Both the position numbers and the translations under genes were made by a program. Below the pieces are notes generated by a model. The model was given only the letters and a program-made list of their open reading frames with translations. It was not told the DNA's origin and ran no database searches. Below are positions 1-21,851 of a stretch of DNA of 64,000 nucleotides, piece by piece. The stretch's first letter is position 1. Every line of letters starts with the position of its first letter. This DNA is from Gammaproteobacteria bacterium. GTDB lineage: Bacteria > Pseudomonadota > Gammaproteobacteria > S012-40. The DNA is taken from assembly GCA_029881255.1 (NCBI GenBank), contig JAOUMY010000005.1:259531-323530 (forward strand). The letters run 5' to 3'.

Positions 1-82
1 AATACAAACTTGCCCGGCGTATGTGCACAAGCGAGCAATAAGAAACTACAGCAAAGAACAACAAGGACGCGACGCATGGAAA

Positions 83-1231
83 TTACGGTAGCAACAACAT
101 TGCTGATTTCTGATCTACCGAGGTTTGTTCAGCTGGATTTTCGCCAGGCGCGGCGGGCACAGATTCTGGTTGTACTGGTTGAGTCTCTTTTGTCGACGGT
201 TTAGAAGCAGGACTTTTCTCCAGAACGGGCTGAGCTTTGGCAGGCGGCAGTATCTCGAAAACCTGGACGCGACCATTGAGACTGTCCGCGACATACAGAT
301 AACCCTTATGGACTTTCATGTCGCTAACGAATCGAAACTCGCCTCGACCGTAACCATTACTACCAATAACGTCGATCAACTTGCCCTGCTGAAAAACCTT
401 GATAATACTTTCATTCTTTTCGGAGACGTAAACACGCCCAAAGTTATCAACTGTCAGTGCGGTAGGGAATATCAACTGACCTTCACCAAAATGGGTCAGA
501 TAACGGCCTTCGTTGTCGAGTACCTGAACGCTGAGCTCAATACGATCGCTAAGATAAAACCCATCGGCCGTTTTAATCATATCGGTGATGATGCGAAATT
601 TACCCGGCCCTTCACCGCGACCACCAATACCGCGTAATGGCTCACCACGCTTATTGAAAACAACCACATGGCTATACACTTCGTCGGCGACGAAAACTTC
701 GCCATTGTCTTCATTGACAGAAACGGCAACCGGACGAGAAATGTTTGGGCCGTGAAAATAGCTACGGATTAGATTGCCATCGGGATCAAAATGCAGCACG
801 CGACGACCTTCGATATCAGCCAAATAGAATGAATGATCGGCTGCGACATAGATATCGGTGGCGTCTTCGGCGACTTCAGCACCAACACCTGCCATCGGGT
901 CCATACGTCCATCGACGAGTGAATAACGGAAAATATATCCATCACCGGCGTCGAAGATATACATGATGTCATCACGTAGCCCGATCGAGACAGGTCTTTC
1001 TAAATCATGGGAGTCGTCACCAACGAGAAATCTCTTAAATCCATCACCTGAGCCCAGACCGACACGGTCTATTGTTGCTCGGTAGCGCAACGTTTTGGCT
1101 TCGGTATCGACACTCGGATGTATGGGCGACATTTTCTCTGGCGCAATCGAACATCCCGCCATGAAAATCGCCAGTGCAATTGAGACTATTTGTAGCGCAG
1201 GCCTACGCTTTTTCTGGGTTCTCTGTGGCAT
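83..1231 (-). CDS. NHL-repeat (six-bladed beta-propeller) lipoprotein. The N-terminus has a lipobox (LAIFMAGCS) and the C-terminus is a Pro/Glu-rich tail. The 5' end overlaps the upstream gene by 46 nt, so the true start may be internal.
   Basis: Repeated [YF]VAD / GxGxGxF segments typical of NHL repeats (e.g. IYVAADHSFYLADIEGRRVLHFD, VFVADEVYSHVVVFNKRGE, LYVADSLNGRVQVFE). Lipobox present. Paralog of the ORF at 8904-9971. Confidence 0.6.
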   Translation of the reverse strand: MPQRTQKKRRPALQIVSIALAIFMAGCSIAPEKMSPIHPSVDTEAKTLRYRATIDRVGLGSGDGFKRFLVGDDSHDLERPVSIGLRDDIMYIFDAGDGYIFRYSLVDGRMDPMAGVGAEVAEDATDIYVAADHSFYLADIEGRRVLHFDPDGNLIRSYFHGPNISRPVAVSVNEDNGEVFVADEVYSHVVVFNKRGEPLRGIGGRGEGPGKFRIITDMIKTADGFYLSDRIELSVQVLDNEGRYLTHFGEGQLIFPTALTVDNFGRVYVSEKNESIIKVFQQGKLIDVIGSNGYGRGEFRFVSDMKVHKGYLYVADSLNGRVQVFEILPPAKAQPVLEKSPASKPSTKETQPVQPESVPAAPGENPAEQTSVDQKSAMLLLP

Positions 1232-1782
1232 CGATTACACTCGTAAGGTGGAAATGCAACTTTTCCATGACAAACACCGCAGTACTCACCTTCCATGATT
1301 TTTGCCATAGTGACCGGATTTCCACCCCGCTGAGGAATAAAAATACCGGGATGGCAGTTCTGACAGGTCAACCAGATGGTGTGCGGACGATGGGGAAAAC
1401 GCACATAAGGCATAGAAGCCGTGTTCTGAAAAATGACGTCGAAATCGACGGCGTGCATTTTGTCTTCTTGGGTAAGACCGGCGCGGGGATCAACCATTCC
1501 TTTGTCCAAGGTCTCGACCCAGTTAATCACACCACGTTCATCTCTGGGAAAATTAAGCATGGCTTCTGCGGGTGGCTGCAGTAATTTTACCGCTTCATTA
1601 GCGGGATCATGTATACCGTCTTCCGCAATAGGCGTAACGTCTCCGTGTAATTGAAAATGACCGGAGCTCTCTTCATATCGTCCTTCTATACGTCCCTCAA
1701 GGCTCGCAGCAAATACGGCCGAGGTGTAAATAAACAGCAAGGACAAAATGATAGTAATTTTCAAGATGTTATTATGGCGCAT
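1186..1782 (-). CDS. Triheme c-type cytochrome, secreted (cytochrome c3/c7-like).
   Basis: Signal peptide. Three heme motifs: CQNCH, CGVCH, CNRCH. Conserved block FPHRPHTIWLTCQNCHPGIFIPQRGGNPVTMAKI shared with the paralogs at 3624-4322 and 4337-4792. Confidence 0.7.
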   Translation of the reverse strand: MRHNNILKITIILSLLFIYTSAVFAASLEGRIEGRYEESSGHFQLHGDVTPIAEDGIHDPANEAVKLLQPPAEAMLNFPRDERGVINWVETLDKGMVDPRAGLTQEDKMHAVDFDVIFQNTASMPYVRFPHRPHTIWLTCQNCHPGIFIPQRGGNPVTMAKIMEGEYCGVCHGKVAFPPYECNRCHREPRKSVGLRYK

Positions 1783-1928
1783 AAAGCGTTTCTCTCTGTC
1801 CGCCCTCTCTTAGTCGAACGATTATACATAAATATTTGCAGAATTCTTGTATTTATTGGATTTTTGACCTCAGTAACACAGACTAGCTGTCATACCTTGC
1901 CCGGTCAGATTTTAGAGCAACGTCCCTC

Positions 1929-3404
1929 TTACATCGACACACCCAACAGCATCAATCCGCGTCTGACTTCCATCGTCGCATCCTTGATAATGACCAACGC
2001 TTCGGTATAGTTTCCCACACTTGCTGACTCTTGAGACTTATCGTGAAAGAACTGCCCTTTATCTACATAACGTTGCATCAAATCTACTGACGCCTTTGCC
2101 GGTTTTTTGACCTCAATTGCTACCGGAATCAGTTCCATATAACTGCGATAGCGATTGACTTCATATTCGTATTCATCTTTCGGCGTATCAAACTTTAACT
2201 CATAAACTAGCGTGCGCGAACCCAGCATCGCATTCATTGCTTCGGCGATAGCTCGCTCCGCAAGTCGAGCTTTGTTTATTGCCTGTTTGAAACTATTAGA
2301 CTTGGCAAGATTGTCTGCTTCCGCCAGTAGGCGCGCCACCTCTTTGGCATCGTAATCCACGATTTCGCGCTTTTCCTTTTGAGCGCTACGTTTTGCAGCG
2401 TCATGCGATTCTTCGAAACTCTGAACAGAAGCCAGGACACCCTCGTATTCGCCGCGCATCTCTTCAAGCTCTTCCTTACTAGGTCCCGCCTTTGGTTTTT
2501 TATTGAAAGCCGACACTACATCTTCAGCTAACGCCATGGCTTGATCCAACTCATTCTTATCTAAACTGGCCTGCGCCTGCTTAACTTTATTTTCTAAGTT
2601 ACTTTTCTCATCGGCATCAAGAGCTTTGCCTTTAAACATAATTAGCATGCTTGCATAACTGACTTTTTGTTTTACAACAGAAGGTGACAAGGTGCTCTTT
2701 GCACTTTGTTCCGGATTGGATTTTGAATATTGAGATTGCTCTGTATCGAGCTTAGCCTGCAATGCTTCGAGATCTGACCCAGCATCTACAATTAACAGCT
2801 TACCGCCCATAGACTGATGGTTACGACATTGATAATACAACTCGTCAGGCGTGTCTTTCTGCGGTTGGAAGGTAACATCTCCATTATAGGTAAATTGTCC
2901 GTCAACATTTCTGGTATAAACCGACGAACCCCAACCCTTGGGACTCTTACTCAAATAAAAATCGTGCTTTACGTTGGTTCTAACACGAAACGTATATTGC
3001 TTACCTCTTTCAAGGACTAACCATTTGCCTTGAACGCCATTCAAGGCGAATCCTTTTTCGTGTCCAATACCAAAAAACGGATGACTCTTGTTTTTTTCTT
3101 CAATATCGATCAGAAAAGTATTTGGCTCTTTTGGTAACTCCCTCGTTGGCTTTGAGACGGATGCCGCAATTGGCTCGGCTTTGAGCTCCGATACCGGCGC
3201 CGCCTCAATAATACTGATACTCGAAACTTCTAATTCGTCGTCCTCTGTTTTCTTCGGAGGAACCGGCTTAACCGCCTGCACTTCTGGCTGACTCGACTCT
3301 TTGGCAGGCATTTGGAAAAAAGCGCAACTCGATAATATTAACGCTGAGACGGCTATTGAACCTGATCGAAGAAGAACACTATTTAAGGACGAAATTCTCT
3401 TCAC
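1929..3404 (-). CDS. Lipoprotein with an N-terminal cupredoxin-like (type-1 copper) domain followed by a long alpha-helical/coiled-coil domain.
   Basis: Lipobox LSSCAF, then a Pro-rich linker. The domain carries candidate ligand His in SHPFFGIGH and VKHDFYL, and an amicyanin-like C-x2-H-x2-M site in YYQCRNHQSMGG; the upstream His lies about 48 residues before the Cys. The C-terminal ~280 aa is Lys/Glu/Ala-rich with heptad-like periodicity. Confidence 0.5.
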   Translation of the reverse strand: MKRISSLNSVLLRSGSIAVSALILSSCAFFQMPAKESSQPEVQAVKPVPPKKTEDDELEVSSISIIEAAPVSELKAEPIAASVSKPTRELPKEPNTFLIDIEEKNKSHPFFGIGHEKGFALNGVQGKWLVLERGKQYTFRVRTNVKHDFYLSKSPKGWGSSVYTRNVDGQFTYNGDVTFQPQKDTPDELYYQCRNHQSMGGKLLIVDAGSDLEALQAKLDTEQSQYSKSNPEQSAKSTLSPSVVKQKVSYASMLIMFKGKALDADEKSNLENKVKQAQASLDKNELDQAMALAEDVVSAFNKKPKAGPSKEELEEMRGEYEGVLASVQSFEESHDAAKRSAQKEKREIVDYDAKEVARLLAEADNLAKSNSFKQAINKARLAERAIAEAMNAMLGSRTLVYELKFDTPKDEYEYEVNRYRSYMELIPVAIEVKKPAKASVDLMQRYVDKGQFFHDKSQESASVGNYTEALVIIKDATMEVRRGLMLLGVSM

Positions 3405-3564
3405 AACATTTTCCTATATTCTGGATAAGCCAACGAAACTGATATCAAGGCAAAATAGAAATTCTCTCTAGCGATTGGCTTTTTCCCAAAGCATCGCTAC
3501 TACCATCCCCGTTTTTTATTTTTTCTTCCGGTCGTCAAATTCCGACATTTCACTCTAGCCAATA

Positions 3565-3595
3565 TGACACATCCCTCATAAAGAGGGATGTGTCA
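3565..3595. other. Perfect 13-bp inverted repeat with a 5-nt loop: TGACACATCCCTC-ataaa-GAGGGATGTGTCA. It lies 29 nt downstream of the 3624-4322 gene on the minus strand and has no U-tract on either strand.
   Basis: Read directly from the sequence. Sits between two co-directional cytochrome genes, 160 nt upstream of the cupredoxin lipoprotein gene. Confidence 0.5.
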
Positions 3596-3623
3596 GGTTG
3601 CTTGTACTATCAGATACCCGTGA

Positions 3624-4322
3624 TTATCTCCAAGGGTTCTTGACAGTTGCATCACTCAAAGGCGGAGTCCAGTCAGCTGGCTTGGGCTTGGAGTGACACT
3701 TGGTACAGGATTTCGTAGTCGGTGGAAAAGAAACCTTTCCATGACACACACCACATTTCTGACCAAGAATAATCGCAGACATATTGATCTGATTTGCACC
3801 GCGCTGAGGTATGAAAATCTTCGGGTGACAGTTAGAACAATGTAGCCATTGAGTATGCGGCTTGTGTGGAAATACCACGTCAGGCACAGAGGCCTTTACA
3901 GGACGGACGATATCGAGGTCCATTACGAACGGCTCGACATCAGGATCCTGACGATCGTAACGTGGATTCAACATGCCATCATTTAGTGACTTAACCCAGT
4001 CAATGTGGTTACCAAATTCCGTTGTTGGCAAACCTTCGTATGCAACCTTTGGCGGCTGCAGTGAGAAGGTAGGTTCGTTAGCGGTATCATGGATTCCATC
4101 TTCTGCCGGCGCAGCATTTGGATCTTTGATCTTTTTCAACAGACGGTTGAAAGTGTTGGCACCAGATACATTCATCTTTGAAGGCACGGAACCAGTCACT
4201 TCAGCAGAAGAAACCGGTGCACTCGCGGCAACCGCTAAAGGAGCGATCTCAGACGCCTGTACCATTACTGGCAACGCGGTAAAAGTTACCGCAATTGCAA
4301 AAGTTCTTAATACGTTTCTCAT
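3624..4322 (-). CDS. Triheme c-type cytochrome, secreted; paralog of 1186-1782.
   Basis: Signal peptide. Heme motifs CSNCH, CGVCH, CTKCH. Block FPHKPHTQWLHCSNCHPKIFIPQRGANQINMSAI matches the paralog. Confidence 0.7.
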   Translation of the reverse strand: MRNVLRTFAIAVTFTALPVMVQASEIAPLAVAASAPVSSAEVTGSVPSKMNVSGANTFNRLLKKIKDPNAAPAEDGIHDTANEPTFSLQPPKVAYEGLPTTEFGNHIDWVKSLNDGMLNPRYDRQDPDVEPFVMDLDIVRPVKASVPDVVFPHKPHTQWLHCSNCHPKIFIPQRGANQINMSAIILGQKCGVCHGKVSFPPTTKSCTKCHSKPKPADWTPPLSDATVKNPWR

Positions 4323-4336
4323 TGGTATTCCTCTCC

Positions 4337-4792
4337 CTACTTCTTATAGCCGTCTTGTACAGTGTCTTTCTGATCCAGGGCCTTATAGGCTGGCGCTACG
4401 AGACGTTGTACTGTACTTCCGCTGATGTGAGTTGGTGTACCTGGAATACCTGAGTGACACATGCCGCAGTTTTCAACTGACCATGAAATCTCTCCGTTGT
4501 GGCAAGCACCACAAAATTGGCCATCAATAATCTTCGCCATTGTAATCTTGTTTCCACCGGCCTTGAACTTAAAGCCCAAATCCGCGTGACAAACCTTACA
4601 GCGAAAACGAATGCGGTGATACCAATGAGGAAAAACTACTGGTCGCATACCCGCCGCATCCGCGTAGTTATTGATGACGACGTCTGCATATTCTGCGTGA
4701 GCCGGCTGTGGCATTACCACAACTGCAACCCATGCTAATGCACCGAATAAGGCGAACTTCCAAATGTTAGTGCGCTCTGCTTTGGCTCTCAT
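4337..4792 (-). CDS. Small triheme c-type cytochrome (c3/c7-like), secreted.
   Basis: Signal peptide ending AHAEY. Heme motifs CKVCH, CGACH, CGMCH. Block VFPHWYHRIRFRCKVCH...KITMAKIIDGQFCGACH is related to the other triheme paralogs. Confidence 0.7.
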   Translation of the reverse strand: MRAKAERTNIWKFALFGALAWVAVVVMPQPAHAEYADVVINNYADAAGMRPVVFPHWYHRIRFRCKVCHADLGFKFKAGGNKITMAKIIDGQFCGACHNGEISWSVENCGMCHSGIPGTPTHISGSTVQRLVAPAYKALDQKDTVQDGYKK

Positions 4793-4853
4793 AACTACGT
4801 TCTCCGTTTATTATAAAAAATCAACGTATAAAAAAACGCATTCCCGACCGAAA

Positions 4854-6671
4854 TCAGAAATTGCGATTAATCTGAAAAATCAACGATATGGATCCCAAAC
4901 CGGAATTACTTATAACACCACGCCCAACGAGTGAAGTCGCCAGTTTGCCAATGTTATACCCAAGCTGATTCTCCCAGTCTCCCTGCAAACGATCTTCCCC
5001 CGACTTATTGATCGTTGAAGAAAGATCAAACTTGGTCCGAAATTTGAGCTTATATATACCAAACAAACGCGAATGTTGGTAGCTCAATCTGCCCGTTGCC
5101 ACCGTCAGAAACTCGTCGAAAAATTTGGCATCGCTGCCTCCTTCGTCCCGACGAGAACTCTGCAAGGAAAAATTTCCACTCCAGGCGCTTAAGCGCGTGA
5201 TAGGCATGGATCGGGAGATTTGCATATTTATAATCTGCATCTCCAACGAATTATCGAAAAAGCTTCGAGTATCCATTGCCGTTAATTGCGCATACGCGCC
5301 GCCAGTGTTCACATCCAGATTCCACGCAAAGCTGCCTGAGTGTGACACCGTCAGTATCGAACCAAGATCTTTTGTTACTAAATATTCGCGTGCTTGTTGC
5401 GTGAAACTAGTACGCAAACTCGATCGGTTTCCCGTAATCCAATGTCGACTAATGCTATGACCAAGTCCTGCGTTCAAGTTTTGCGAAAGATCTAAGTCGA
5501 AGTCTGTTGAAGCACCTATTTTGCTGCGTTCACTTCCGGCGTCATTACCTATTCCAGCATTAGAAAACCAGCGATATTGAAAACCACGGCGTATCACTTG
5601 GTCAGATTGATACATTAACTGTACATTCTGTTTGGAACTTATATTCTGGCGACTCTCCGTATCGAGCGCGTTTCCACTAACTGACGCGGTCAGTTGCGTG
5701 CGACGATTTATCGTATAGGTACCTGAAAGAAAAGCATTCACGCCCTGGGTATCATTAATCAAAGAATCGTTATTATTGGTAAACTGGCGCAAATTTACAC
5801 GCAAAGCACCGTTAAGAACATATGGCCTGTAAACCGGACGCCAGTAGAAAAAGCTCGAGGCCTGACTCACTTCACTACTGCTGTCATTCGTACCACTCTT
5901 GTCCGTGTAATTGATATGAGACCCAAGAGTCTTTATATAAAACTCACTATTCGGAACGTAATGGTGCATGGCGGTGAGATACCCAGCTTGCGTTTTGCTC
6001 CCCGGGGTAATCCCTCCCTCTCTTGTCTGATAAGAACCTGTCGCATAAAAATTATGGTTGGCAACACGCGACTGTATTTTTCCGCCATAAGTCTGTTCAC
6101 TTGAATCACCAATCGTACTTGACGTCTGTCTGGCCCGATCCTGTATCCACAAATCTAACTGATCACCGCTACGACCGATAAAACTCTGCTTAACACCGAA
6201 AAAACGCGTTTTGATATCGAGCCCAAGCCTAAGCAGATCTTTTCCTGGAAATTTTACTACTGAATCACTAGTCGCAGGATCAAGATTGTTCTGCATGTAA
6301 AAAGAAGCCACCATCGGCGCACGACTGCGGGGTAAAAATCGAAAATCGCTTCTTGAAGACAACAATAAGGATCGCTTCTCTACGCCCTCTTCCACCAATG
6401 AAAACGCACCGGTACCGGATCCGCCCACGTTAAACGTCGCAAACCATGGCTGCCATAAATAACTATCCGCGTTTAATGAACCGACTACATAAGAGCTCTG
6501 TGATCGCTTTGCCTCTTCAGTGACATACAAAGCGTAGTTATAGCCCAAGTTGCCACTCAAATTCAGGGGAGACGTCGATGCCTGAACGGCCGACAGAAGA
6601 AGACCGCAAAATAATATCGCGAATACCACAGCTGCAGGTCTAAACATTATCACCTGCACTGTATGCACCAT
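4854..6671 (-). CDS. Large outer-membrane beta-barrel (porin-like) protein, about 600 aa. It has no CxxCH motif.
   Basis: Signal peptide (AVQAS). Ser/Thr/Asn/Gln/Gly/Tyr-rich composition with alternating hydrophobic residues throughout. C-terminal Phe (…INRNF) as in many outer-membrane proteins. Confidence 0.6.
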   Translation of the reverse strand: MVHTVQVIMFRPAAVVFAILFCGLLLSAVQASTSPLNLSGNLGYNYALYVTEEAKRSQSSYVVGSLNADSYLWQPWFATFNVGGSGTGAFSLVEEGVEKRSLLLSSRSDFRFLPRSRAPMVASFYMQNNLDPATSDSVVKFPGKDLLRLGLDIKTRFFGVKQSFIGRSGDQLDLWIQDRARQTSSTIGDSSEQTYGGKIQSRVANHNFYATGSYQTREGGITPGSKTQAGYLTAMHHYVPNSEFYIKTLGSHINYTDKSGTNDSSSEVSQASSFFYWRPVYRPYVLNGALRVNLRQFTNNNDSLINDTQGVNAFLSGTYTINRRTQLTASVSGNALDTESRQNISSKQNVQLMYQSDQVIRRGFQYRWFSNAGIGNDAGSERSKIGASTDFDLDLSQNLNAGLGHSISRHWITGNRSSLRTSFTQQAREYLVTKDLGSILTVSHSGSFAWNLDVNTGGAYAQLTAMDTRSFFDNSLEMQIINMQISRSMPITRLSAWSGNFSLQSSRRDEGGSDAKFFDEFLTVATGRLSYQHSRLFGIYKLKFRTKFDLSSTINKSGEDRLQGDWENQLGYNIGKLATSLVGRGVISNSGLGSISLIFQINRNF

Positions 6672-6845
6672 GCGTCACAAATAACAACGGCACCCCTCCA
6701 CCGATGAATGAGACTATTCATATGCTTTCAGGAAAACACAGACAGACCGTGAAACGGTCGTGACGAGCTCTCCTCCCTATTCAAATTTCTGAAGTCGTTT
6801 TAACTTGCAAAAACTCGCGACTTTCAGCGTTGTAAGGCTATCGGT

Positions 6846-7820
6846 CTATAGACCAGCCATATCGATTGTTATAGTTGCCCTGGATTTCAGATTTCGCAAC
6901 AAATCTGCCCAGGCTTGTTTAGCCCGCTCCCGTTGCCATAACTGGCGGACTCGATCCTTAACCTTCTCGTATTCATTCAACTGGGCGTCAAGCGTCTCAT
7001 CCAAACGCAGTATTGCAACGCCCTGCAACATCATCACGGGGTCACTAATTTCATTTTCTTTCATTCCATTGAGGACTTTCTCTGCCTGTGGAGAAAGCAT
7101 ACCCTGATGTAGAAAGCCCATATCGCCGCCGTTAGACGCCGATGGATCACCAGAATGTATACGTGCGGCGTCAGCAAAGTCCGCTCCACTACGCAAGCGC
7201 TTAACCAGTTTTTGCGCTTCGTCGCTAGCAGCCTGCCAAACGTCAGCACCAGACGACGGCGCGACCTTTAACAGGATTAGCGAAACGCGGCGCTGCATAG
7301 GCGTGGTAAATAGCTCGCGGTTTCCATCGTAAAATTTCTGCGCTTCTTTTTCATTCGGGACACCTATCTCTTGCACCCTCTGACGAAGTTGTTCCAGCAA
7401 ATTTTCTTCTTCCAGCGCCGCACGCAAACCAGCCAGCATGCCCTCACGGTTACGCTCCCAATCTGGACGTGACGCATAACGTTTCTCATAAGTCTTGAGC
7501 TGAGATTCAACAGACTTAGCATCGGCTGTAATTTTCTGCTTCTTCGCCTCACGCAACAACAACAACCGCTCAATCAAGGTATCAGAGACTTCTTGTTTGA
7601 ATGCCTCAAGCTGTTGTTCAGGAATCTTGCCGTGGTAAAAGCGCTTGCGCACACCCGCCTGATAGGCCATACGAAAATCGTGTTTGGAAATCTGTTCGCC
7701 GTCTACGACAGCAAATGCATCATTCTCTTTGGCTGTTGCTTTGGCATCGGGCTTGGCATAGGCAGCTACCTGCCACAAAACCAGCAAAACGACTAAGCCC
7801 GCTTTTACAACTCCGCGCAT
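6846..7820 (-). CDS. Periplasmic peptidyl-prolyl cis-trans isomerase, SurA/PpiD-like with a parvulin domain.
   Basis: Signal peptide. Parvulin signature ...SGDPSASNGGDMGFLHQGML... A chaperone-like N-terminal helical region is present. Confidence 0.7.
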   Translation of the reverse strand: MRGVVKAGLVVLLVLWQVAAYAKPDAKATAKENDAFAVVDGEQISKHDFRMAYQAGVRKRFYHGKIPEQQLEAFKQEVSDTLIERLLLLREAKKQKITADAKSVESQLKTYEKRYASRPDWERNREGMLAGLRAALEEENLLEQLRQRVQEIGVPNEKEAQKFYDGNRELFTTPMQRRVSLILLKVAPSSGADVWQAASDEAQKLVKRLRSGADFADAARIHSGDPSASNGGDMGFLHQGMLSPQAEKVLNGMKENEISDPVMMLQGVAILRLDETLDAQLNEYEKVKDRVRQLWQRERAKQAWADLLRNLKSRATITIDMAGL

Positions 7821-7844
7821 CTCTACTTACCTGTTCCGCACTGT

Positions 7845-8744
7845 TTACTTAACGTGACACGTCAAACACAAACCGCTTGGTGTGTCTGTATTGCTAATGC
7901 GCAGAAAAGTTGGGTTTACAGTTTCATGCGGATCATGGCAACTGGCGCATTCCACAAAAGGTTCTTGTTCAGACTGTCCAGGATAACCATTTTGTGCGTC
8001 ACGAGTATAAAGCAGGACATCATGTTTTGTACGCTCACCATCGCCGCCGTTGCGCCAATCATGGTCAACCCACCAGATATAACGACCGTCTTTTACTTTA
8101 TAGTTCACTTCAGCAAAATCAGGGTCGTTAGTGTCTCCACGACTGGGTTTCGGACGAGAAGCACTTACGCCGCCACCGGCATATTGCATTCCTATAGGGT
8201 GATCGTTGGTTAAGTCCGTTCCGAGATTTTGAACCAGACCCGGGGCAATCACAGAGCTATTGTCATTAGATCCGATTCCACCTAACTGCTGATCCGCGCC
8301 CGTCCAACGTCCAGCGGAAAAACTCGGGTTCTCTGCACCAGAACCAGGTTCATTGATGAGATTGTCGAGAGCTATGGTACCGTCATGACATGACAGACAG
8401 CCGATAGAAACAGAACCCACATCAGCAATACGTGCGTCGAATGTCGACGTGCCCAATTGATCATAAGTCTGATAAACAGCTGGATTGGCTAGTTTGCGAT
8501 TCCAGAGTGGAATAGCTGCGCTGGAATCACCACCATGAGGGGTATGACAGAAGACACAGATTTCGGCTGTTCCTGAAAATTCATTACGCTCGCCACCGTT
8601 GGCGCTGGTACTTGTACCCGTAACACCGAGATTGTGCACGGATTCGGCAATCCCAGCCCAGGCAACTTTTGTATTGACAGTCAACACAAGACCTATGCCT
8701 GCAACGACTGCAAAACTCGCCAAGGCCTTCAGGTTAGCTCTCAT
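7845..8744 (-). CDS. Tetraheme c-type cytochrome, secreted, with CxxCHxxH 'paired CXXCH'-style motifs.
   Basis: Signal peptide. Heme motifs CVFCHTPH, CLSCH, CASCHDPH, CLTCH. Gly/Asn/Asp-rich loops between the heme sites. Confidence 0.7.
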   Translation of the reverse strand: MRANLKALASFAVVAGIGLVLTVNTKVAWAGIAESVHNLGVTGTSTSANGGERNEFSGTAEICVFCHTPHGGDSSAAIPLWNRKLANPAVYQTYDQLGTSTFDARIADVGSVSIGCLSCHDGTIALDNLINEPGSGAENPSFSAGRWTGADQQLGGIGSNDNSSVIAPGLVQNLGTDLTNDHPIGMQYAGGGVSASRPKPSRGDTNDPDFAEVNYKVKDGRYIWWVDHDWRNGGDGERTKHDVLLYTRDAQNGYPGQSEQEPFVECASCHDPHETVNPTFLRISNTDTPSGLCLTCHVK

Positions 8745-8903
8745 TTCCCCCCCTAAATCTAGAATCCACGTATCAACAAGGCTGATCGATTTCTATCGCT
8801 CTACTATAAAGCCTTATCCCAGCATACTGGACAAAGGCCTTACTCTAGACGACTAACCTTGTTTTCGCAAGACTGAATGTAAGGAAATATAAGAGCAAAT
8901 CAG

Positions 8904-9971
8904 TCAACGAATCACAGACTTGGCGCTGTCTTCATCGAGTAGTCGCCAAACATCAATCGATCTCAAGGCCTGATCCACTATATAGATAAATCCCTTTTCA
9001 TCGCTCGCCACTCCCGAGGGAAGTAGATATCGCCCTGGTTCACCGGGCGGCTCTTGATTCCCCAGCACCAACAACAATTGTCCGTCGCTGTTAAAAAACT
9101 GTACATTCTGAAATGCTGTGTCCGAAATCACGAACAAACCGTTATGAGTTAGCGCCAATCCACGCGGCCTGGCCAATTGCCCCAAGCCGCGCCCAAGCCC
9201 GGCCCAACTGCTTTTGTACTTTCCCTCGGAATCGAACACCTGAACACGAAAGTTTCCCGCATCCAACACCACAAGATCACCCTGCAGACTTACCGTCACC
9301 TGGTTAGGATGATTAAACTGTCCTTCACCATGACCGCGTTCACCAATAAAGCGTTTGAATTTACCTTCAGAATCAAACTGAGTGACGCGATGCCGTGTTG
9401 AATCCACGCCACCTCGATCCAGGGCAAACACATCGTTATTTAACGATGAAACCGCAACATCACTAAGCCGATCAAACAGATCCGGCGTTCCAATTTCGCG
9501 CAGATAAAGGCCATATGCATCGTAGACTATGATCTTACCGCGCGCACTATCGGCAATATAAACCTGCTTGTTGTTGTCGATTGCAATTCCTGCAGGTTTT
9601 TCAAGTTTTCCTTCCCTCCGCCAGCCGAATGCAAAAAAGCGCCGACGTTGCAAATCGAACATATACGCGACGGCATCGCGACTATCCGTAATGGCAACTA
9701 AACCGTGCCGAGCCGCAATATCATAAGGCTTGTTCATGCCGGGAGCGGACTCCAACTCGCCGGTCGCAAAGCGCTGGAATCTTTGCAGAGTGGAATCGCG
9801 AACAAGATCTTCGCCAGAACGAAGACGTGCTTCCAGTTTCAATCTGGGCAAGTCCGGCGCGGGTGGCCAGTAAAAAGGTTTATTCTCAATTATCGGTGCG
9901 TTTGAACACGCTGATAACACCGACGTCAGAAAAGCAAAGCTCAACCAAAAAACCAGAATACTGAACCGCAT
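8904..9971 (-). CDS. NHL-repeat beta-propeller lipoprotein; paralog of 83-1231.
   Basis: Lipobox VLSACS. Repeated [IV]A[IV][TD]D / YV[AF]D segments (LVAITDSRDAVAYMFD, VYIADSARGKIIVYD, LVVLDAGNFRVQVFD, LFVISDTAFQNVQFF, IYIVDQALRSIDVW). Confidence 0.6.
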   Translation of the reverse strand: MRFSILVFWLSFAFLTSVLSACSNAPIIENKPFYWPPAPDLPRLKLEARLRSGEDLVRDSTLQRFQRFATGELESAPGMNKPYDIAARHGLVAITDSRDAVAYMFDLQRRRFFAFGWRREGKLEKPAGIAIDNNKQVYIADSARGKIIVYDAYGLYLREIGTPDLFDRLSDVAVSSLNNDVFALDRGGVDSTRHRVTQFDSEGKFKRFIGERGHGEGQFNHPNQVTVSLQGDLVVLDAGNFRVQVFDSEGKYKSSWAGLGRGLGQLARPRGLALTHNGLFVISDTAFQNVQFFNSDGQLLLVLGNQEPPGEPGRYLLPSGVASDEKGFIYIVDQALRSIDVWRLLDEDSAKSVIR

Positions 9972-9994: not shown

Positions 9995-10684
9995 TTAAAC
10001 TGCTTTTTTCAATTCCTCACGCATCTTGGCCACGATGCTATCGTAGCGATTCGGGTCTGAAACACCAGGCTTACCAAAAATTCCCGAGCCTGAAACAAAG
10101 GTATCTGCACCTGCTTCTGCTATCTCGCGAATGTTTTCCACTTTGACTCCACCATCTATTTCAAGGCGAATATCATAGCCAGACTCGTCAATAATTTTAC
10201 GCGCCTCTCTCAGTTTATCGAGAGTTGCAGGAATAAACGCCTGCCCGCCAAAACCAGGGTTCACAGACATCAACAAAATCATGTCGACTTTGTCGATAAC
10301 GTATTTCAGATAATCCAGAGGTGTCGCAGGGTTGAATACTAAACCCGATTTGCATCCACTACTTCTGATGAGTTGCAGGGTTCTGTCCACATGCTTGGAA
10401 GCCTCAGGGTGAAAGGTAATATAGGTGGCACCTGCCTCAGCAAAATCTGGGATGATGCGATCAACTGGCTCTACCATCAAATGCACATCAATTGGAGCGG
10501 TAATGCCATGTTTGCGCAACGCCTCACAAACCAATGGGCCAATCGTCAGATTGGGGACATAGTGATTATCCATAACGTCAAAATGGACAAAATCAGTTCC
10601 CGAATCTAATACGTTTTTGACTTCCTCGCCCAGACGGGCGAAATCTGCAGACAGGATGGACGGTGCAATCTTAAAATCTGGCAT
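9995..10684 (-). CDS. rpe: Ribulose-phosphate 3-epimerase.
   Basis: Full-length match to the Rpe family ([15 protein letters not shown]...[17 protein letters not shown]...[13 protein letters not shown]...EIDGGV). Co-directional with the cytochrome cluster and immediately upstream of it. Confidence 0.9.
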
Positions 10685-10736
10685 GACTTTAGCCTCTTAC
10701 CTTTACAATTCTGTTCGTAAAATCTGGCGACAAATG

Positions 10737-11690
10737 ATACTTGTCTATCCAAAAAGGACGCACTTTACCGCAATACGCCTCTATTTACAGCTTCTTTTTC
10801 GTCAGACACGCTGTCTCTTACCCGTTTCTTTTTCCGATGTGCGCGTTTACCTATTGGTGCCGACATTACTCTGCGCCCAGCCGGGATTCTCCAGTAATCT
10901 ATGGGAGGAACAACAAATCTGGCAGGAGATCGAGAACTCGGTCCCCAAAAGCCAGATTGTGAAATTAGATGCTGGGAAGCGCTACCCCGTATTGGGATTA
11001 TACATTGCGTCCAGCCTGAACGAGGCTGACGGCGGCGTGCTCATACTCCATGACTTCGGGCACCACCCGAATTGGCCACGTGTCAGTCGACCACTGCGTG
11101 AACAATTACCCGATTCCGGCTGGCATACCCTCGCGATCCAAATGCCCATTCCGGATCCTATGTGGAATTTTGACAATCCTGCGGATGTTCTCAAAGAGTC
11201 TGTAGCGCGAATCGAATCCGCGATTTCGTTTATGCAACAAAGAAACATCGAGCCTTTGGCTATTATCGCCCACGGCCAAAGCGCCGCAGTGGTCACGCAA
11301 TACCTGGCAGAAACGCCGCAACACCCATTTAAAGCACTGGTGGCCATTAGCCTACCTCACCAAGAACAAAGCGAAGACTGGCATAATATTAAGAAAAATC
11401 TGGTCAATCTTCAGTTACCCATGTTGGATATTTATGCCGAACGGGACTATACATCGGTAACTGATCACGCCCATATGCGCCTGGTTGCCGCCCGCGTCGC
11501 AGGAAAAAACTTGAAACTTGGGCCACCTCCCATTGCTCACTCCAGCAAGGTACAAGAACTCGCGAAAAACAAGACCAGCAATCTATGGTTTCGACAGATC
11601 ATGTTGCCTGGCGCCTTTCCAGACTTCCCCTACAATACCGACGAACTGGTGAAAGCCATTAGAGGCTGGCTTTCCGTATATAGCCGATAA
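10737..11690 (+). CDS. Secreted alpha/beta-hydrolase-like protein (DUF3530-like). Start is uncertain: the ATG at 10737 or the GTG at 10846 could be used; the 10617 ORF start overlaps rpe.
   Basis: Possible signal peptide VYLLVPTLLCAQP. Hydrolase-like core LILHDFGHHPNWP...AIIAHGQSAAVV. The family assignment is tentative. Confidence 0.45.
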   Translation: MLVYPKRTHFTAIRLYLQLLFRQTRCLLPVSFSDVRVYLLVPTLLCAQPGFSSNLWEEQQIWQEIENSVPKSQIVKLDAGKRYPVLGLYIASSLNEADGGVLILHDFGHHPNWPRVSRPLREQLPDSGWHTLAIQMPIPDPMWNFDNPADVLKESVARIESAISFMQQRNIEPLAIIAHGQSAAVVTQYLAETPQHPFKALVAISLPHQEQSEDWHNIKKNLVNLQLPMLDIYAERDYTSVTDHAHMRLVAARVAGKNLKLGPPPIAHSSKVQELAKNKTSNLWFRQIMLPGAFPDFPYNTDELVKAIRGWLSVYSR

Positions 11691-11818
11691 GCACTAGCAA
11701 CCTGAAAAGATTAAGTTTTTCCGCCTTATCGCGCGCAAAACCCACCTCTACCAGTGTCCCCAGCGTATCCATTGGTGCATAATTGTAAGTAGTATCACCA
11801 GCTGTTAGACGGAATATC

Positions 11819-12274
11819 ATGGCATTAGCGATCACTCTTCATCTTTTGGCCGCAATCGTTTGGATTGGGGGAATGTTTTTCGCGTATATGGCGCTTCGAC
11901 CGGCGGCCGCTAGGGTGCTAGAACCACCACCCAGACTCCATCTGTGGCAACTCACTTTTAAACGCTTTTTCGTCTGGGTCTGGGTGTGCGTATTAGTTCT
12001 GCCACTAACCGGCTACTGGATGGTTTTTTTCGTACTTGATGGGTTTGGTCAAGCTGCCCTGTACATCCATATCATGCATTTCCTTGGACTGGTCATGATT
12101 GCGATTTATATGTTTGTTTATTTTCGCCCGTACCAGGGACTTAAAGATGCCATACGCGCAGAAGATTTCCCGTTAGCAGCTAGCCATCTCAATAAAATGC
12201 GACAACTCATAGCAATCAATCTCAGCCTGGGGATTGCAACAGTGTTAGTTGCTAGTATGGGGCGATATTTTTGA
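11819..12274 (+). CDS. Small four-TM membrane protein, CopD-like (putative copper-resistance protein D family).
   Basis: Four hydrophobic helices. N-terminal motif [14 protein letters not shown] resembles the CopD-family signature. Confidence 0.45.
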
Positions 12275-14415
12275 AATTTGTACCGGCGCTTTATTTTGTC
12301 TCATTAATTGCGCTTACGTTGGGATATTCCACAACGCTGGTAGCCGAACGCTATGCATATGAAGAAATCCCACTCAGTGATGTCATCGTTATCAACAACA
12401 GTAATAAAGTTCTCGGGCACAACGCACTTGGACAACCCACCGTTCTGATTTATACGGCAGAAAATCGATACTCGAGAATCATTGGCGACACGACGGTTCC
12501 GAACACTGCAATACTATCCCTAGCCGGTTTGGATGCAAAAGAAGTACACGCAACTGATATCAATAGCCCTGCACCCGAAGATGAATCATCAGAAATAGTT
12601 TCAGGTTGGTATCTAGACCTAGACGATAAAGAACACGCCGTAATCTGGCGAAACACCGAAGGTGCGTATACCGACGAACAACTTCCGAACTTTAAAAAAG
12701 AGCAAAACATATGTCCCGAAAGTGGAGTTCAAGGGAATGATTGCATCCTGAGAGAAGAAATTGAAGATGTGCTTATCGCAGTACAAACTTCCCAGGGTTG
12801 TGACAATAGCGCGTGGACAGATTGGGTGGCAAGCGACCCCTTCCCTACACCTTCAATCGTGACAGAATGCGACTTCCGCAGCAAAGCATACGCACTCAAT
12901 GATAATGGCATTGTTGTTGGCATTTCGATTCGCTACGACGGCACAACACGCGCAATCGCCTGGGAGGAAGAAGAAATCACTAGCGACGACGAGACTGCCA
13001 CTCCCGAAGTTGCCTATGTGGCAAGGGACCTGGCAACCATCAATGTAGGAGGGAAGATTAACAGCCTTATTGCCCAAGCATCGAAAATTAATCGACACAG
13101 CAATGAAATTACCGGTGAAATATTCAAAGAAACCGAAGCTCGGTTCAACGCAACATTGTGGTCAGACACGACCAAAGCCCCGGTCGATATAGTCAAGGAT
13201 GCTGCCGGAACTCACTACGATAACCCAATAGGCATAACCAGCATCACATTAAATGGCGTTATTGGCTGGTATGCCGACAATAGCGGCTTGATTCGTCCAG
13301 TCCGTTGGCGCCGATTTCAAAACGATCAACAGGAATTGGTTTTTGAATCTAAGGACATCATAACGCTCGAGGAAGATATCGGATATGGCCGTATCTATCA
13401 GGCCAATGATCTAGGCGAATTCGTTGGTGCCTCAGGCCTGGATCCCGCAAACTACCGAGCATATAAATTAAGTCCGCAATGCGGTGTGCAAAATCTCAAT
13501 GAGCTGCTCGCGTTTCCAAACCCTGATTTATCATTAAAAAAAGCGCTATCTGTTACGACACGCATAAAAGAGAATTTTATCGTCGCATCTGGCCAAATGG
13601 CGGACGATACAACAGAGCGTTTCTACGTTTTGAGCCCTACCAGCGTCGATATCGATCTTCAAACTGCAATCATTTCTGATCATGAGCGACTGACAGTTGG
13701 TGAAAAACACACCTATTCCATAGTAATTCGAAACAATAGCGATATTGCAGAACCCAATAAATACGCAACCTGCCTTAGCGCTAATATTGCTCCGGTCATT
13801 CCTGTAAAGCGCGACACGTCTCTTAACCCGGATCTTTCGGAAATCTATTACAAATCTGGTGGCTTAACAATAATCAGTGCCGAAGGTACCGATGGAGTGA
13901 TTTGCAATTGGACACCCATAGATGTCAATTGTTTCGTTGACAGACTAGACCCCGGACAATTTGTCACCGTCACTCTTCTAACCGAGCCGCGTATTATTCT
14001 CGCAGATCGCACGATTGCTATGACGTCTATCATTCAATCAAGCGAAAACGAGATAAAGGAAGACGACAACAAAGCCATAACATTCACGCATATCGATCGT
14101 GAAGGATGCTTTATCGCTACAGCCGCCTATGGCTCATATCTCGAAGAACATGTACAGACACTCAGAAAATTTCGCGATGACGTTTTATTGAAGACATCTG
14201 TAGGCCGCTGGCTCGTACATCAATATTATAAATATTCCCCCGAGCTGGCAGATTACATCGCGCAACATTCAGAATTGCGGATGATCGTTCGATGGCTGTT
14301 AACACCCATTGTTTGGATCATCGAAAAGCCCTTGCTATTCCTTTTTGCATTAAGCGGAATGCTCATGTTTATTGCTTTGTTGAAAACATCAGCACGACGG
14401 ACTCAACCAATGTAG
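12271..14415 (+). CDS. Large acidic secreted protein (713 aa) with a C-terminal CFI-box-type sorting domain and a terminal TM anchor. Starts at a TTG that overlaps the upstream stop codon (TTGA).
   Basis: Signal peptide. C-terminus ...[30 protein letters not shown]...[35 protein letters not shown] matches what I recall as the CFI-box-CTERM motif ([10 protein letters not shown] followed by a TM helix and a basic tail). Confidence 0.55.
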
Positions 14416-16688: not shown

Positions 16689-17072
16689 CTAGGCAGATAT
16701 CGGTGGACGAATGTCTGCTGGAAGTGAAACAGTAGTGAGCTTATAAATATCTCTGAACTGGACACCAGTTTTTTTCCAATTGGCGCCGCAGAAAACCTGA
16801 ACCTCGCTAACCGCAGCTGCAATCAATTGGGTTGAACAGGTATTATCCGGTCCGTAATCATTGTTGTCGCTCACCTGAATATCAGAAAAATCGACATCAC
16901 TCAGGTCAATTGCGCTGGAATGGGAAGAATGAGAATCGTGTTCGATAGAGGAGTTTATATCAACTCGATCATGGAAAAGACAGTCAACAGATGCGGCCAC
17001 CACAGACAACGGCATCCACGCTGCGATCAAAACGCAGTAAAAGACTATAGTTTTTTTTGTAAATCTTCCCAT
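16689..17072 (-). CDS. Small secreted His/Ser/Asp-rich protein; overlaps the czcA stop by 28 nt.
   Basis: Signal peptide. Mature part [35 protein letters not shown] with two Cys. Function unknown; possibly a periplasmic metal binder. Confidence 0.4.
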
Positions 17073-20000
17073 GTTTGAGATCTTTTCTTTTTTCTAAAAG
17101 AAGGCTTTTTAAACGTTGGTCGCCATGACCAAACTCGCCTCCAACTCCCCGGCCGTTTGATAGACCCGTTAATTGCTCCGTTATTTATAGCAAATTGTTT
17201 TCCTTTCCACAAGGCATATAAAGCGGGAATTAAAACCATGGAAACTAGCGGCGCGGTGATCATTCCACCCAGCATCGGAGCGGCAATCCGTCTCATTACT
17301 TCGGAACCAGTGCCGCCGCCAATCATTATCGGTGCCAACCCGGCCAATATCACCGCAGCAGTCATCGCTTTGGGACGGACACGCATTACCGCGCCATAAA
17401 CTATCGCGCGACGTAGTTCATTCAAATCCTTGGGATCAAAATCTTTTACTGCCTGGTTTAAGTAAACCAGCATAACAACACCAAATTCCGCTGACACTCC
17501 TGCCAGAGCGATCAATCCGACTCCGACCGCTACTGATAGATTGTAGTCAAGCAGATAAACCATCCACAATGCCCCCACTAGAGCAAGTGGCACAGCGCCC
17601 ATGACCATAAAGGATTCTGCAAAATTTCTGAAATTGAAATACAGCAACAACAAAATGATTACCAGGGTTAGAGGCACAACATAAATCAGCTTTTCCTTTG
17701 CACGCAGCATGTATTCGTATTGTCCGGACCAACCAAGGGCATAACCTGCAGGTAGTTCGACTTTTTCGAGAACAATTCTTTGAGCATCAGCGACGAAACT
17801 TCCCAGGTCGCGACCTCGGATATCAACATATACCCAGCCTGTTCGCCTCGCATCTTCACTTTTTATCATTCCTGGCCCGTCGGCGATGGAGACAAAGGCA
17901 ACATTGCCCAGGGTGATCTGACCGCCCCCTGGTGTAACAATCGGTAAAGCCATCAGGTCATCAATAGAATCACGTACGTGTTGTGGATAGCGGATATTGA
18001 CCGGATAACGTTCCAGTCCTTCAACTGTTTGAGTAACATTTGCCCCACCCACAGCCATGCTGATAATTTCATGTACATCAGCGATGTTTAAGCCGTAGCG
18101 TGCGGCTGCACGTCTGTCAATATCCAAGTTAATATATCGACCACCTGCCACGCGTTCCGAAAAAACACCGGCGGCTCCCGGTACACTCTTCACCGCAGAC
18201 TCAACTTGCTCGCCGATCTTTTGTATCACGCCCAGATCAGGACCAAGAATCTTGATACCCAACGGAGTTTTTATACCCGTAGATATCATGTCTATACGTG
18301 TTTTGATCGGCATAACCCAGGCGTTTGTCAATCCGGGAAACTTCACCGTTTCATCGAGAATATTTTTCAGCTTATCGGTGGTCATCCCCTTACGCCATTC
18401 ACTGCGGGGCTTTAATTTGATCGTGGTTTCGATCATTGTAAGTGGAGCAGGATCGGTGGCTGTTTCGGCCCTGCCCACTTTACCGAATACAACATCGACT
18501 TCTGGAATGGTCTTTATCAAACGATCCGTAATTTGTAACAACTCGCCAGCTTTGCCGATTGATACACCGGTGAATGTGGTCGGCATATAGAGCAAATCAC
18601 CCTCATCCAATTCCGGCATAAACTCAGAACCCAATTCTCCATAGGGATATATCGTGGTTAAAACAACTGCAAAAGAAAGGACTACGACCGTCTTTGGCCA
18701 ATTGAGCACGAACTTAATGACCGGCAGATACATCGATATAAGGAATCGATTGATCGGATTTTTATGCTCTGAGGGAATATGTCCCCTTATAAAATATCCC
18801 ATCAATACAGGCATAAGTGTTATCGACAAACCCGCCGCTGCAGCCATGGCATATGTCTTGGTATAGGCTAGCGGGGAAAATAGTTTTCCTTCTTGCGCCT
18901 CAAGTGTAAAAACAGGAAGAAAACTCAAAGTAATTATCAACAACGAAAAGAATAGTGCCGGACCCACTTCAACCGCAGCACGCTGCATAGCAACCCAGCG
19001 ATTCTCATCTGTGATATTGCCCTTTTCAATATGTTTATGCGCATTTTCAACCATCACAATGGCTGCATCGACCATGGCACCTATGGCAATGGCAATTCCG
19101 CCCAGGGACATGATGTTAGAATTGATATTCTGATAATGCATTACGATATATGAGATCAATATACCGAGAGGCAAAATAACTATTGCCACCAATGCAGAAC
19201 GCAAATGAAATAGAAAGATTCCGCAAACAATTGCGACGACGATAAATTCTTCAATGAGCTTATCGCGTAGTGTTGTTATCGAACGCATGATGAGATCGGA
19301 ACGATCATATGTTTCGATGATTTCCACGCCTTCCGGCAAGCCCTTGGCGACCTGAGCCAATCGTGTTTTAACTGCCTCTATCGTGGTCAACGCGTTTTCA
19401 CCAAAACGCATCACGATAATGCCGCCAACGACCTCACCTTCACCATCGAGCTCGGCGATACCACGGCGCATCTGTGGGCCGATACGAATATTGGCAACAT
19501 CCTGCAGCAACACAGGCGTACCTTCTTCACTCACACCAAGCGGAATATGGCGAAGATCGTCCAGACCCTTGATATAACCTTTGGCACGAACCATATATTC
19601 AGCTTCGGCCATTTCGATAACAGAACCACCCACTTCCTGGTTGGCCCGTTGTATCGCTGTCTTCACATGATTGATATGCATGTTGTAAGCACGCAGACGA
19701 TCAGGATCCACCACCACCTGGTACTGTTTGACCATTCCGCCAACAGTTGCGACTTCTGAAACACCTGGTACGGTCTGTAGTTCGAAGCGTATAAACCAAT
19801 CTTGCAAGCTACGTAGTTGAGCGAGGTCATGATTGCCGCTGCGGTCAACGAGCGCGTACTCATAGATCCAGCCTACACCGGTCGCATCCGGTCCTAGCTG
19901 AGGTGTTGCCGACGGAGGCAAGGCCCCGGCGACTTGCGACAAATACTCGAGCACGCGGGAACGCGCCCAATATATATCTGTGCCATCTTTAAAAATGACA

Positions 20001-20281: not shown

Positions 20282-20391
20282 ATCTACTACCGAACAATAT
20301 CCGCCGCGTCACTATACTTAATGAATGACATCGGCATGTCATTTATTTTTATTGAATTCTTGCCGATCAATTTCCCGGAAATTGTCAGATA

Positions 20392-21849: not shown

Positions 21850-21851
21850 GT

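Follow-up and report, generated by a model that had tools for sequence, protein, structure and literature searches.

A probable uet-type electron-transfer gene cluster in a gammaproteobacterial contig and the relation of its cytochromes to OmcE

This study was concerned with a 64,000-nt stretch of DNA from a gammaproteobacterium (GenBank assembly GCA_029881255.1, contig JAOUMY010000005.1, positions 259,531 to 323,530), referred to below as the window, and with a cluster of cytochrome, beta-barrel and cupredoxin genes that occupies window positions 1-9971 on the minus strand. The genes are named here after the published uetABCDEFGHIJ cluster, with which they are compared below. NHL0 is a name coined here for one further gene, which lies outside the published uetA-J names.

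Gene content and conservation of the cluster

Domain calls were made by comparing the window proteins with Pfam and NCBIfam. A preliminary description of this DNA had listed nine co-directional minus-strand open reading frames (ORFs) downstream of rpe. All nine are present at the positions it gave, with the domains and motifs it assigned, and the Pfam and NCBIfam matches uphold its NHL, tetraheme, PPIase and triheme calls. The features are as follows, in the direction of transcription.

9995..10684, minus strand: rpe (ribulose-phosphate 3-epimerase), a co-directional context gene 23 nt upstream of the first cluster gene
8904..9971, minus strand: NHL0, NHL beta-propeller lipoprotein upstream of uetA (NHL 1.6e-18; DUF5128 6-bladed propeller; lipobox LSAC)
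7845..8744, minus strand: UetA, secreted tetraheme c-type cytochrome (CVFCH, CLSCH, CASCH, CLTCH; Paired_CXXCH_1 1e-11)
6846..7820, minus strand: UetB, periplasmic SurA-like parvulin peptidylprolyl isomerase (PPIase) (Rotamase 2.4e-19; SurA_N_3 6.5e-12; signal peptide)
4854..6671, minus strand: UetC, predicted outer-membrane beta-barrel (605 aa; signal peptide; C-terminal Phe)
4337..4792, minus strand: UetD, periplasmic c7-type triheme cytochrome (TIGR04257 7e-18)
3624..4322, minus strand: UetE, c7-type triheme cytochrome with an N-terminal extension of ~120 aa (TIGR04257 6e-17)
3565..3595, minus strand: perfect 13-bp stem-loop, ~30 nt past the uetE stop and within the 219-nt gap between uetE and uetF
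1929..3404, minus strand: UetF, 491-aa cupredoxin-domain lipoprotein (lipobox LSSC; C193-x2-H196-x2-M199)
1186..1782, minus strand: UetG, c7-type triheme cytochrome (TIGR04257 9e-18)
83..1231, minus strand: UetH, NHL beta-propeller lipoprotein with a Pro/Glu/Ser-rich C-terminal tail (NHL 1.6e-8; DUF5128 8.6e-10; lipobox MAGC)
1..77, minus strand: 5' end of uetI, first 25 codons (translation MRRVLVVLCCSFLLLACAHTPGKFV), cut at the window edge

The cluster does not end at position 83 but is cut by the edge of the window. An ATG at 77, five bases beyond the stop codon at 83-85, marks the beginning of a lipoprotein signal peptide (MRRVLVVLCCSFLLLAC...) whose sequence resembles the UetI N-termini of related loci (numbered L001 onwards), for example ...LLLSACAHKQYKF in L011. 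The two closest barrel homologues lie on the long metagenome contigs L001 and L003, and both read rpe, NHL, tetraheme, PPIase, barrel, c7, c7, a 500-aa protein, c7, NHL, NHL and a cytochrome. In L001 this last cytochrome, UetJ, has 792 aa and 11 CXXCH motifs, and the L003 contig ends before the gene is complete. Among the ten closest loci uetJ is found in all ten, at full length with 11 CXXCH motifs in six and cut by a contig end in four; among full-length UetJ proteins of the family, 52 of 55 have exactly 11. The rest of uetI and an 11-heme uetJ thus probably lie just outside the window, judging from these relatives. The preliminary description had counted no more than 3-4 hemes per cytochrome, and this count is most likely an artefact of the window edge, because in relatives with enough sequence uetJ falls beyond the cut, two genes past position 1.

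Related loci were collected through the barrel protein. A word-indexed protein search with the barrel returned 11 homologues, and a 33-sequence profile returned the same 11. In an exhaustive profile search of 1.84 billion proteins, the barrel family was found to have 882 cluster representatives at E<=1e-3, of which 597 reach E<=1e-30. At the species level, the barrel alignment was scanned against 185,579 species genomes (one genome per species), which gave 124 relatives, of which 80 loci were kept. Most hosts of these relatives are uncultured Gammaproteobacteria with the labels Ectothiorhodospiraceae, Chromatiales or Thiohalophilus, together with Betaproteobacteria that include Gallionella, Rhodoferax, Oxalobacteraceae and Sideroxyarcus.

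For the synteny survey, all ORFs of the related loci were searched with the window proteins and with UetI and UetJ from L001. Gene order was kept almost everywhere across the 80 loci. Completeness was scored for loci with at least 10.5 kb of sequence beyond uetC (n=52), and C, D, E, F, G, I and J were all present in 50 of them. The cluster is therefore conserved as a unit, as the preliminary description had supposed, and the arrangement is not due to chance, because the same order recurs in loci that were found through the barrel protein alone. The position of uetB is the same across related loci. The gene for rpe stands directly upstream of the cluster in eight of the ten closest loci (L001, L003, L006, L007, L009, L010, L012 and L014) with 77-84 % identity, and in L001 and L003 a Ribul_P_3_epim match occupies the same position.

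The components differ in how well they are conserved. The identities to the ten closest loci are 84-90 % for UetD, 75-81 % for UetE, 71-78 % for UetG and 70-76 % for UetA, compared with 47-56 % for UetB, 46-57 % for UetH, 42-50 % for UetF and 30-43 % for UetC. Conservation is far higher in the small cytochromes than in the rest of the Uet components. Across the family, a lipobox-like motif is found in 70-83 % of the NHL proteins, in 36 % of UetF and in 1-12 % of the cytochromes, UetB and UetC.

Several features of the DNA itself recur in relatives. The 3' end of uetG overlaps uetH by 46 nt (1186-1231), and translational coupling of the two genes is suggested because the overlap is repeated in L001. 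The 84-nt region around the stem-loop after uetE has a predicted RNA fold of -34.2 kcal/mol (z = -4.6), and strong perfect hairpins occur at the matching spot in five relatives (L001, L008, L011, L009 and L026). The element may act as a partial terminator, or it may stabilise the mRNA and so raise the dosage of uetD and uetE. A promoter scan was uninformative, with fewer sigma-70-like sites than in shuffled sequence.

The edges and the gene content of the cluster vary among relatives. The gene directly upstream of uetA encodes an NHL protein in 37 of the 59 loci with upstream sequence. In eight sampled loci of a clade in which uet is linked to ccsBA (described below), a beta-barrel porin replaces this NHL gene, with a Porin_4 match in seven and a weak BBP2 match in L024. 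One or two classical Porin_4 general porin genes were observed directly upstream of uetA in L016, L018, L020, L021, L026 and L030 of this clade, and L018 also has a di-heme cytochrome c peroxidase upstream of uetA. A group of betaproteobacterial variants (L035, L038, L041, L044, L045, L047, L054, L068, L078 and others) has two short UetF-like genes (~290-415 aa) and not one of ~500 aa; these variants (L035, L038 etc.) also have UetE-like proteins with 4-7 hemes and an extra small triheme after uetG. Only one record of the 80 is not labelled as a metagenome-assembled genome (MAG), Hydrogenophaga sp. RWCD_12 (L072, NZ_JBKIXC010000006.1). This locus carries the NHL gene, uetA-G, uetI and uetJ, with no uetH detected, and the strain may be a culturable host that is open to genetics.

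Match to the published uet cluster

The name uet stands for "undecaheme electron transfer". The cluster uetABCDEFGHIJ was named in "Candidatus Tenderia electrophaga" by Eddie et al. 2022 (bioRxiv 10.1101/2022.05.06.490989). In that description UetA is a tetraheme cytochrome, UetB a peptidylprolyl isomerase, UetC a barrel with 28 strands by PRED-TMBB2, UetD and UetE c7 trihemes, UetF a cupredoxin "much larger" than soluble cupredoxins, UetG a triheme, UetH and UetI NHL proteins and UetJ an undecaheme cytochrome, and the UetDEG trihemes best match domain C of GSU1996 (bioRxiv 10.1101/2022.05.06.490989). The order of the window genes, which is tetraheme, PPIase, barrel, triheme, triheme, cupredoxin, triheme, NHL and NHL (8744 to 83, then the uetI codons), matches uet at each position that the window shows. 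The cluster has also been reported in Gallionella, in a Gallionellaceae pangenome (PMC10734462), and Gallionella MAGs are among the loci that were retrieved with the window barrel.

A second link comes from the genes that follow uetJ. Among eight loci of the L015-L031 and Thiohalophilus clades whose downstream ORFs were scanned, seven (L016, L018, L020, L021, L022, L030 and L046) have a ResB-like (CcsB) gene after uetJ, and L050 has a CcsA-type gene downstream. The retrieved family is tied to the published cluster by this arrangement, because uetJ is followed by ccsB/ccsA in Tenderiales as well.

Gene order and content are the same in the window and in Tenderia, relatives of the window continue to an 11-heme cytochrome, and the window host is likewise an autotrophic proteobacterium with RuBisCO. 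The two differ in four respects. The window has an extra NHL lipoprotein gene between rpe and uetA, in two loci of its clade (L001 and L009) the gene directly after uetJ is not from a ccsAB-nrfG-batABD block, its UetH has a clear lipobox whereas Tenderia UetH is predicted to be cytoplasmic, and its barrel has only 26-29 % identity to the barrels of the ccsBA-linked clade.

From this comparison we conclude that the window probably holds the promoter-proximal part of a uet cluster, namely NHL0-uetA-B-C-D-E-F-G-H and the first codons of uetI, and that its products would form an outer-membrane electron conduit. We give this reading a probability of roughly 0.75. The preliminary description had considered the combination of cytochromes, barrel and cupredoxin not to be a described system. 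This is contradicted by the match to uetABCDEFGHIJ, with the cupredoxin UetF included, and the claim of novelty falls because uet was named in 2022 and surveyed again in 2023. The porin-cytochrome conduit that it proposed has fared better, since a large plug-less barrel, a conserved unit and the same idea published for uet (bioRxiv 10.1101/2022.05.06.490989) all speak for it, but not for membership by sequence of the MtrAB/PioAB/MtoAB type.

Several points weigh against the conclusion. The gene uetJ itself is not within the window. The genes after uetJ in the window's own clade differ from the ccsAB-nrfG-bat arrangement, with a radical SAM gene in L001 and an ABC ATPase gene in L009. Orthology to the Tenderia proteins (ALP54622-ALP54629) rests on architecture, on published descriptions and on the ccsBA link. 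The published support for Uet function consists of comparative genomics and expression, with no genetic or biochemical test reported in the Uet papers (bioRxiv 10.1101/2022.05.06.490989). In addition, the Tenderia trihemes, the UetF orthologue and the undecaheme cytochrome were not significantly regulated by electrode potential (PMC5371394). Lastly, the direction of electron flow is one that we infer, and OmcE in Geobacter works outward.

UetC, UetF and the OmcE-like cytochromes

The preliminary description had called the large ORF at 4854-6671 a beta-barrel, and structure prediction agrees. The AlphaFold2 model of UetC (input of 12 sequences) is all-beta with 28 long strands, no plug and a mean predicted local distance difference test (pLDDT) score of 79.9, and the strand count agrees with the published 28-strand prediction. 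A C-terminal Phe is found in 56 of 84 UetC homologues. A Foldseek comparison with the PDB, in which 50 matches were listed, returned large outer-membrane barrels, and the highest template-modelling score (TM-score) among the matches listed was that of MtrB (6r2q_B). Because this score is 0.44 at ~10 % identity, MtrB would be an analogue and not a detectable homologue of UetC. No Pfam or NCBIfam family matched UetC at E<=0.1, MtrB and PioB included.

In MtrCAB, MtoAB and PioAB, as in this cluster, the gene for a large plug-less outer-membrane barrel accompanies genes for secreted multiheme cytochromes, and the presumed task is electron transfer across the membrane. The cluster differs from them in the 28 strands of UetC compared with 26, in having no sequence homology and no decaheme insert, and in its other accessory genes. 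Membership of the MtrAB/MtoAB/PioAB family was tried and rejected, with no DmsE/MtrA-type decaheme in the cluster, a score of 31.9 bits for the tetraheme against the TIGR03508 cut-off of 192 and a barrel without an MtrB/PioB match. The assignment to this type in the preliminary description is not upheld by sequence, and what remains is a functional analogy.

Four components define PCC3 (He et al. 2017, PMC5566968), namely a porin, a cytochrome of ~21 hemes in the periplasm, one of 10-63 hemes outside the cell and an inner-membrane protein with five transmembrane segments; the range of the periplasmic cytochrome extends to about 21-27 hemes (PMC10734462, PMC5566968). Both PCC3, known from Sideroxydans, Leptothrix and others, and Uet are porin-cytochrome clusters predicted by bioinformatics in genomes of iron oxidisers. 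Unlike Uet, PCC3 has a repeat-rich extracellular cytochrome and the five-segment membrane protein, and its definition is without NHL, PPIase, c7 triheme or cupredoxin genes. The preliminary description had likened the PPIase and NHL proteins to PCC3 accessory genes. These genes belong to Uet, and NHL is never mentioned in the paper that defined PCC3 (PMC5566968). In a profile survey of the window and 85 related loci, no cluster cytochrome had more than 12 CXXCH motifs, and PCC3 membership was rejected; the five-segment inner-membrane protein was not searched for.

UetF was modelled with a pLDDT of 86. In the model the lipobox is followed by ~70 disordered residues, then by a beta-sandwich (~96-206) and lastly by an all-helical domain (212-486). 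The best PDB match of the beta-sandwich is rusticyanin, at 15-19 % identity, and the helical domain gave no informative match. Among 107 homologues H147, C193, H196 and M199 are each at least 90 % conserved. The cupredoxin call in the preliminary description is thus supported by a predicted cupredoxin fold and a conserved ligand set, and in this model the domain carries a complete His/Cys/His/Met type-1 copper site. UetF is far larger than soluble cupredoxins, as published for Tenderia UetF. It is like rusticyanin of the Acidithiobacillus ferrooxidans Fe(II) chain in its fold and copper site and in being encoded among electron-transfer cytochromes. It is unlike rusticyanin in being a 491-aa lipoprotein with a disordered tether, a 275-aa helical domain and C-x2-H-x2-M spacing, and the window organism is probably neutrophilic.

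Copper-related genes also flank the cluster, at 10617-14415 and 17045-23159. A CopD-family membrane protein, a DUF3530 protein and a 714-aa protein are kept next to uet in L001, and L003 has the same genes without CopD. Further on lies a CusCBA-type resistance-nodulation-division (RND) efflux system with a heavy-metal-binding CusB. The flanking genes might reflect copper supply for UetF, or shared ancestry alone.

UetD, UetE and UetG all pass the TIGR04257 model. UetD matches GSU1996 in the PDB (3ov0_A, E 1e-41), with domain C (residues 172-242) as the best-matching stretch. UetE is a paralogue of UetG (40 % identity, E 2e-49), and the two have an N-terminal extension in common.

By sequence, UetA matches solved subunits of cytochrome filaments. 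A phmmer search of the PDB with UetA found 7tfs_A, the OmcE filament subunit of G. sulfurreducens (E 7.2e-21), and 9yuq_N, from an OmcE nanowire bundle of D. soudanensis (E 6.4e-21). Eight His residues of UetA are 99-100 % conserved in 70 sequences, the four in the CXXCH motifs and H37, H70, H182 and H273, and the other two His residues are conserved at ~1 %; the four CXXCH motifs and W81 are also 99-100 % conserved. OmcE homologues are reported to keep four CxxCH motifs and four further His residues (bioRxiv 10.1101/2025.10.22.684050). By sequence UetA belongs to the OmcE family of tetrahemes. The N-terminus of UetJ also matches OmcE (E 1e-15) and aligns with UetA across all four hemes, and the first module of all 52 eleven-heme UetJ proteins has the same eight His, eight Cys and W81. 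In the relatives UetJ thus begins with an OmcE-like four-heme module, after which come seven more hemes. UetA-like proteins with five CXXCH motifs were also seen at the cluster edges in L040, L044 and L081; five-heme OmcE-like proteins have been described as a possible separate nanowire family (bioRxiv 10.1101/2025.10.22.684050).

The resemblance extends to the gene neighbourhood. Besides OmcE itself, the omcE clusters are described as encoding two multiheme cytochromes, a large beta-barrel and two beta-propeller lipoproteins; homologues are reported from Pseudomonadota, and no candidate for a tip protein is evident in Geobacter-type omcE operons (bioRxiv 10.1101/2025.10.22.684050). In comparison with the OmcE system of G. 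sulfurreducens and Desulfuromonas soudanensis (7TFS, 9YUQ), Uet has a homologous UetA with four CXXCH motifs and four conserved His residues and likewise a large barrel, beta-propeller lipoproteins and further multiheme cytochromes. It adds a PPIase, three c7 trihemes, a cupredoxin lipoprotein and a protein of 11 hemes in which the OmcE module recurs at the N-terminus. Moreover, the Uet host is an aerobic or microaerobic autotroph and not a metal reducer. No statement of a connection between Uet and OmcE was found in the Uet papers or in the literature searched, in which a single paper names both UetA and OmcE and draws no link between them, and the OmcE preprint (bioRxiv 10.1101/2025.10.22.684050) does not mention Uet or Tenderia.

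Proposed electron flow and alternative explanations

The window also contains genes that bear on the metabolism of the host.

23890-31282 and 52015-52983: Calvin-cycle genes, namely the RuBisCO large subunit with a LysR regulator gene divergent from it, CbbQ, a VWA (CbbO-like) protein and phosphoribulokinase (PRK)

Together with Rpe, the Calvin-cycle genes in the window are RuBisCO, CbbQ, the CbbO-like protein and PRK. They share the window with the uet cluster, and the host is an autotroph. Three other redox genes were observed in the window. A second candidate surface cytochrome at 33720-35510 (minus strand) is a 596-aa lipoprotein (LGGC) with nine CXXCH motifs and weak matches to MtrC/MtrF domains II/IV. 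A 613-aa protein with several class-I cytochrome c domains (53733-55574, plus strand) and an EB_dh (ethylbenzene-dehydrogenase-like heme-binding) protein (62640-63593, plus strand) are periplasmic redox proteins.

In the mechanism that we propose, the products of the cluster would assemble into a conduit for electrons at the outer membrane. Its multiheme cytochrome, which may be UetJ and/or UetA, would contact an extracellular donor such as Fe(II) minerals or a cathode through or on the UetC barrel, and the three periplasmic trihemes, which are abundant and highly conserved, would shuttle the electrons to the inner-membrane respiratory chain. The membrane-tethered blue-copper protein UetF is possibly a further relay, and the PPIase and the NHL propeller lipoproteins may fold, assemble or scaffold the complex. 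The net flow would most likely be inward, and the probable role is electron uptake in a Calvin-cycle autotroph. The inward direction is suggested by the Calvin-cycle genes in the window and by the high expression of the Tenderia orthologues on an oxygen-reducing biocathode, where the three trihemes and the UetF orthologue show some of the highest expression of all Tenderia genes (PMC5371394).

Electrons could also run outward through the same conduit, in dissimilatory reduction of metals or electrodes, the direction known for OmcE and porin-cytochrome complexes in Geobacter and for MtrCAB in Shewanella. The homologues of known function (OmcE and the GSU1996- and PpcA-type c7 cytochromes) act outward in Geobacter, and Mtr-type conduits are reported to be reversible (PMC10734462). 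We nevertheless consider outward flow unlikely for this host, which encodes RuBisCO, CbbQ/O, PRK and Rpe and in which rpe abuts the cluster. Electroautotrophy or iron oxidation is the way of life of the described carriers, Tenderiales and Gallionella, expression of the Tenderia orthologues on a cathode is high, and a blue-copper protein whose top structural matches are rusticyanin-like would suit a high-potential uptake chain. That the cluster is instead a PCC3 or an MtrAB/PioAB/MtoAB-family porin-cytochrome complex is highly improbable. In its favour are the shared general plan, in which genes for secreted multiheme cytochromes flank that of a heme-less barrel, and the top TM-score of the barrel model among the matches listed, which is that of MtrB. 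Against this, the clusters surveyed hold no cytochrome near the ~21-27 hemes that PCC3 needs, and for Mtr both the missing DmsE/MtrA decaheme and the barrel, with its lack of a Pfam match and its ~10 % identity to MtrB, stand in the way. Judged by sequence, membership of the PCC3 and Mtr families is refuted and functional analogy alone is left.

The remaining alternative takes the system to be mainly an OmcE-type nanowire. UetA would polymerise extracellularly into an insulated filament of tetrahemes, UetC would be a secretion pore or anchor of this filament and not a sheath around a trans-membrane cytochrome, the NHL proteins and the PPIase would be assembly factors, and UetJ would be a base or tip that joins the filament, the barrel and the trihemes. 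The matches of UetA to the two filament structures at E ~7e-21 favour this, as do the conservation of exactly eight His residues in the 70 UetA sequences, the number also reported for OmcE homologues, the same ligands in the first module of 52 of 52 UetJ proteins, the described content of omcE clusters with their barrel, two propeller lipoproteins, two multihemes and pseudomonadotal homologues, and the lipobox-like motif in most NHL proteins. However, OmcE-like tetrahemes are widespread and most are without known polymerisation (bioRxiv 10.1101/2025.10.22.684050), and neither filament formation nor His ligation of the heme of a neighbouring subunit can be read from a sequence. The N-terminal His of UetA is offset by 4 residues in the OmcE alignment, and no filament from a Uet-carrying organism is reported in the Uet or OmcE papers. 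We regard a system that is mainly a nanowire as possible, though the less probable reading, and it refines the conduit explanation more than it excludes it.

The conduit reading and the OmcE relation can be combined in a more detailed model, which we put forward as a speculative one. Uet would be an OmcE-type nanowire for electron uptake by aerobic autotrophs, in which UetA forms the filament, the N-terminal module of UetJ, which has every heme ligand of the OmcE fold, docks on the filament end via the normal subunit interface, and the seven-heme tail of UetJ threads the UetC barrel to the trihemes and UetF. We think this version of the system doubtful as it stands. If it were true, UetJ would be a dedicated base or tip protein of a cytochrome nanowire.

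On sequence grounds the cluster in this window is a further copy of the known uet system, the function of which is inferred. The spread of the barrel family, with 882 representatives and 124 relatives among 185,579 species genomes, documents the distribution of uet, and with Hydrogenophaga sp. RWCD_12 among the carriers a genetic test could be possible. The OmcE homology of UetA and UetJ is one addition beyond the known cluster that could repay further work. It joins two literatures, that on Uet in electroautotrophs and that on the nanowires of Geobacter, and it leads to a testable model for how a cytochrome filament may be anchored to a porin.

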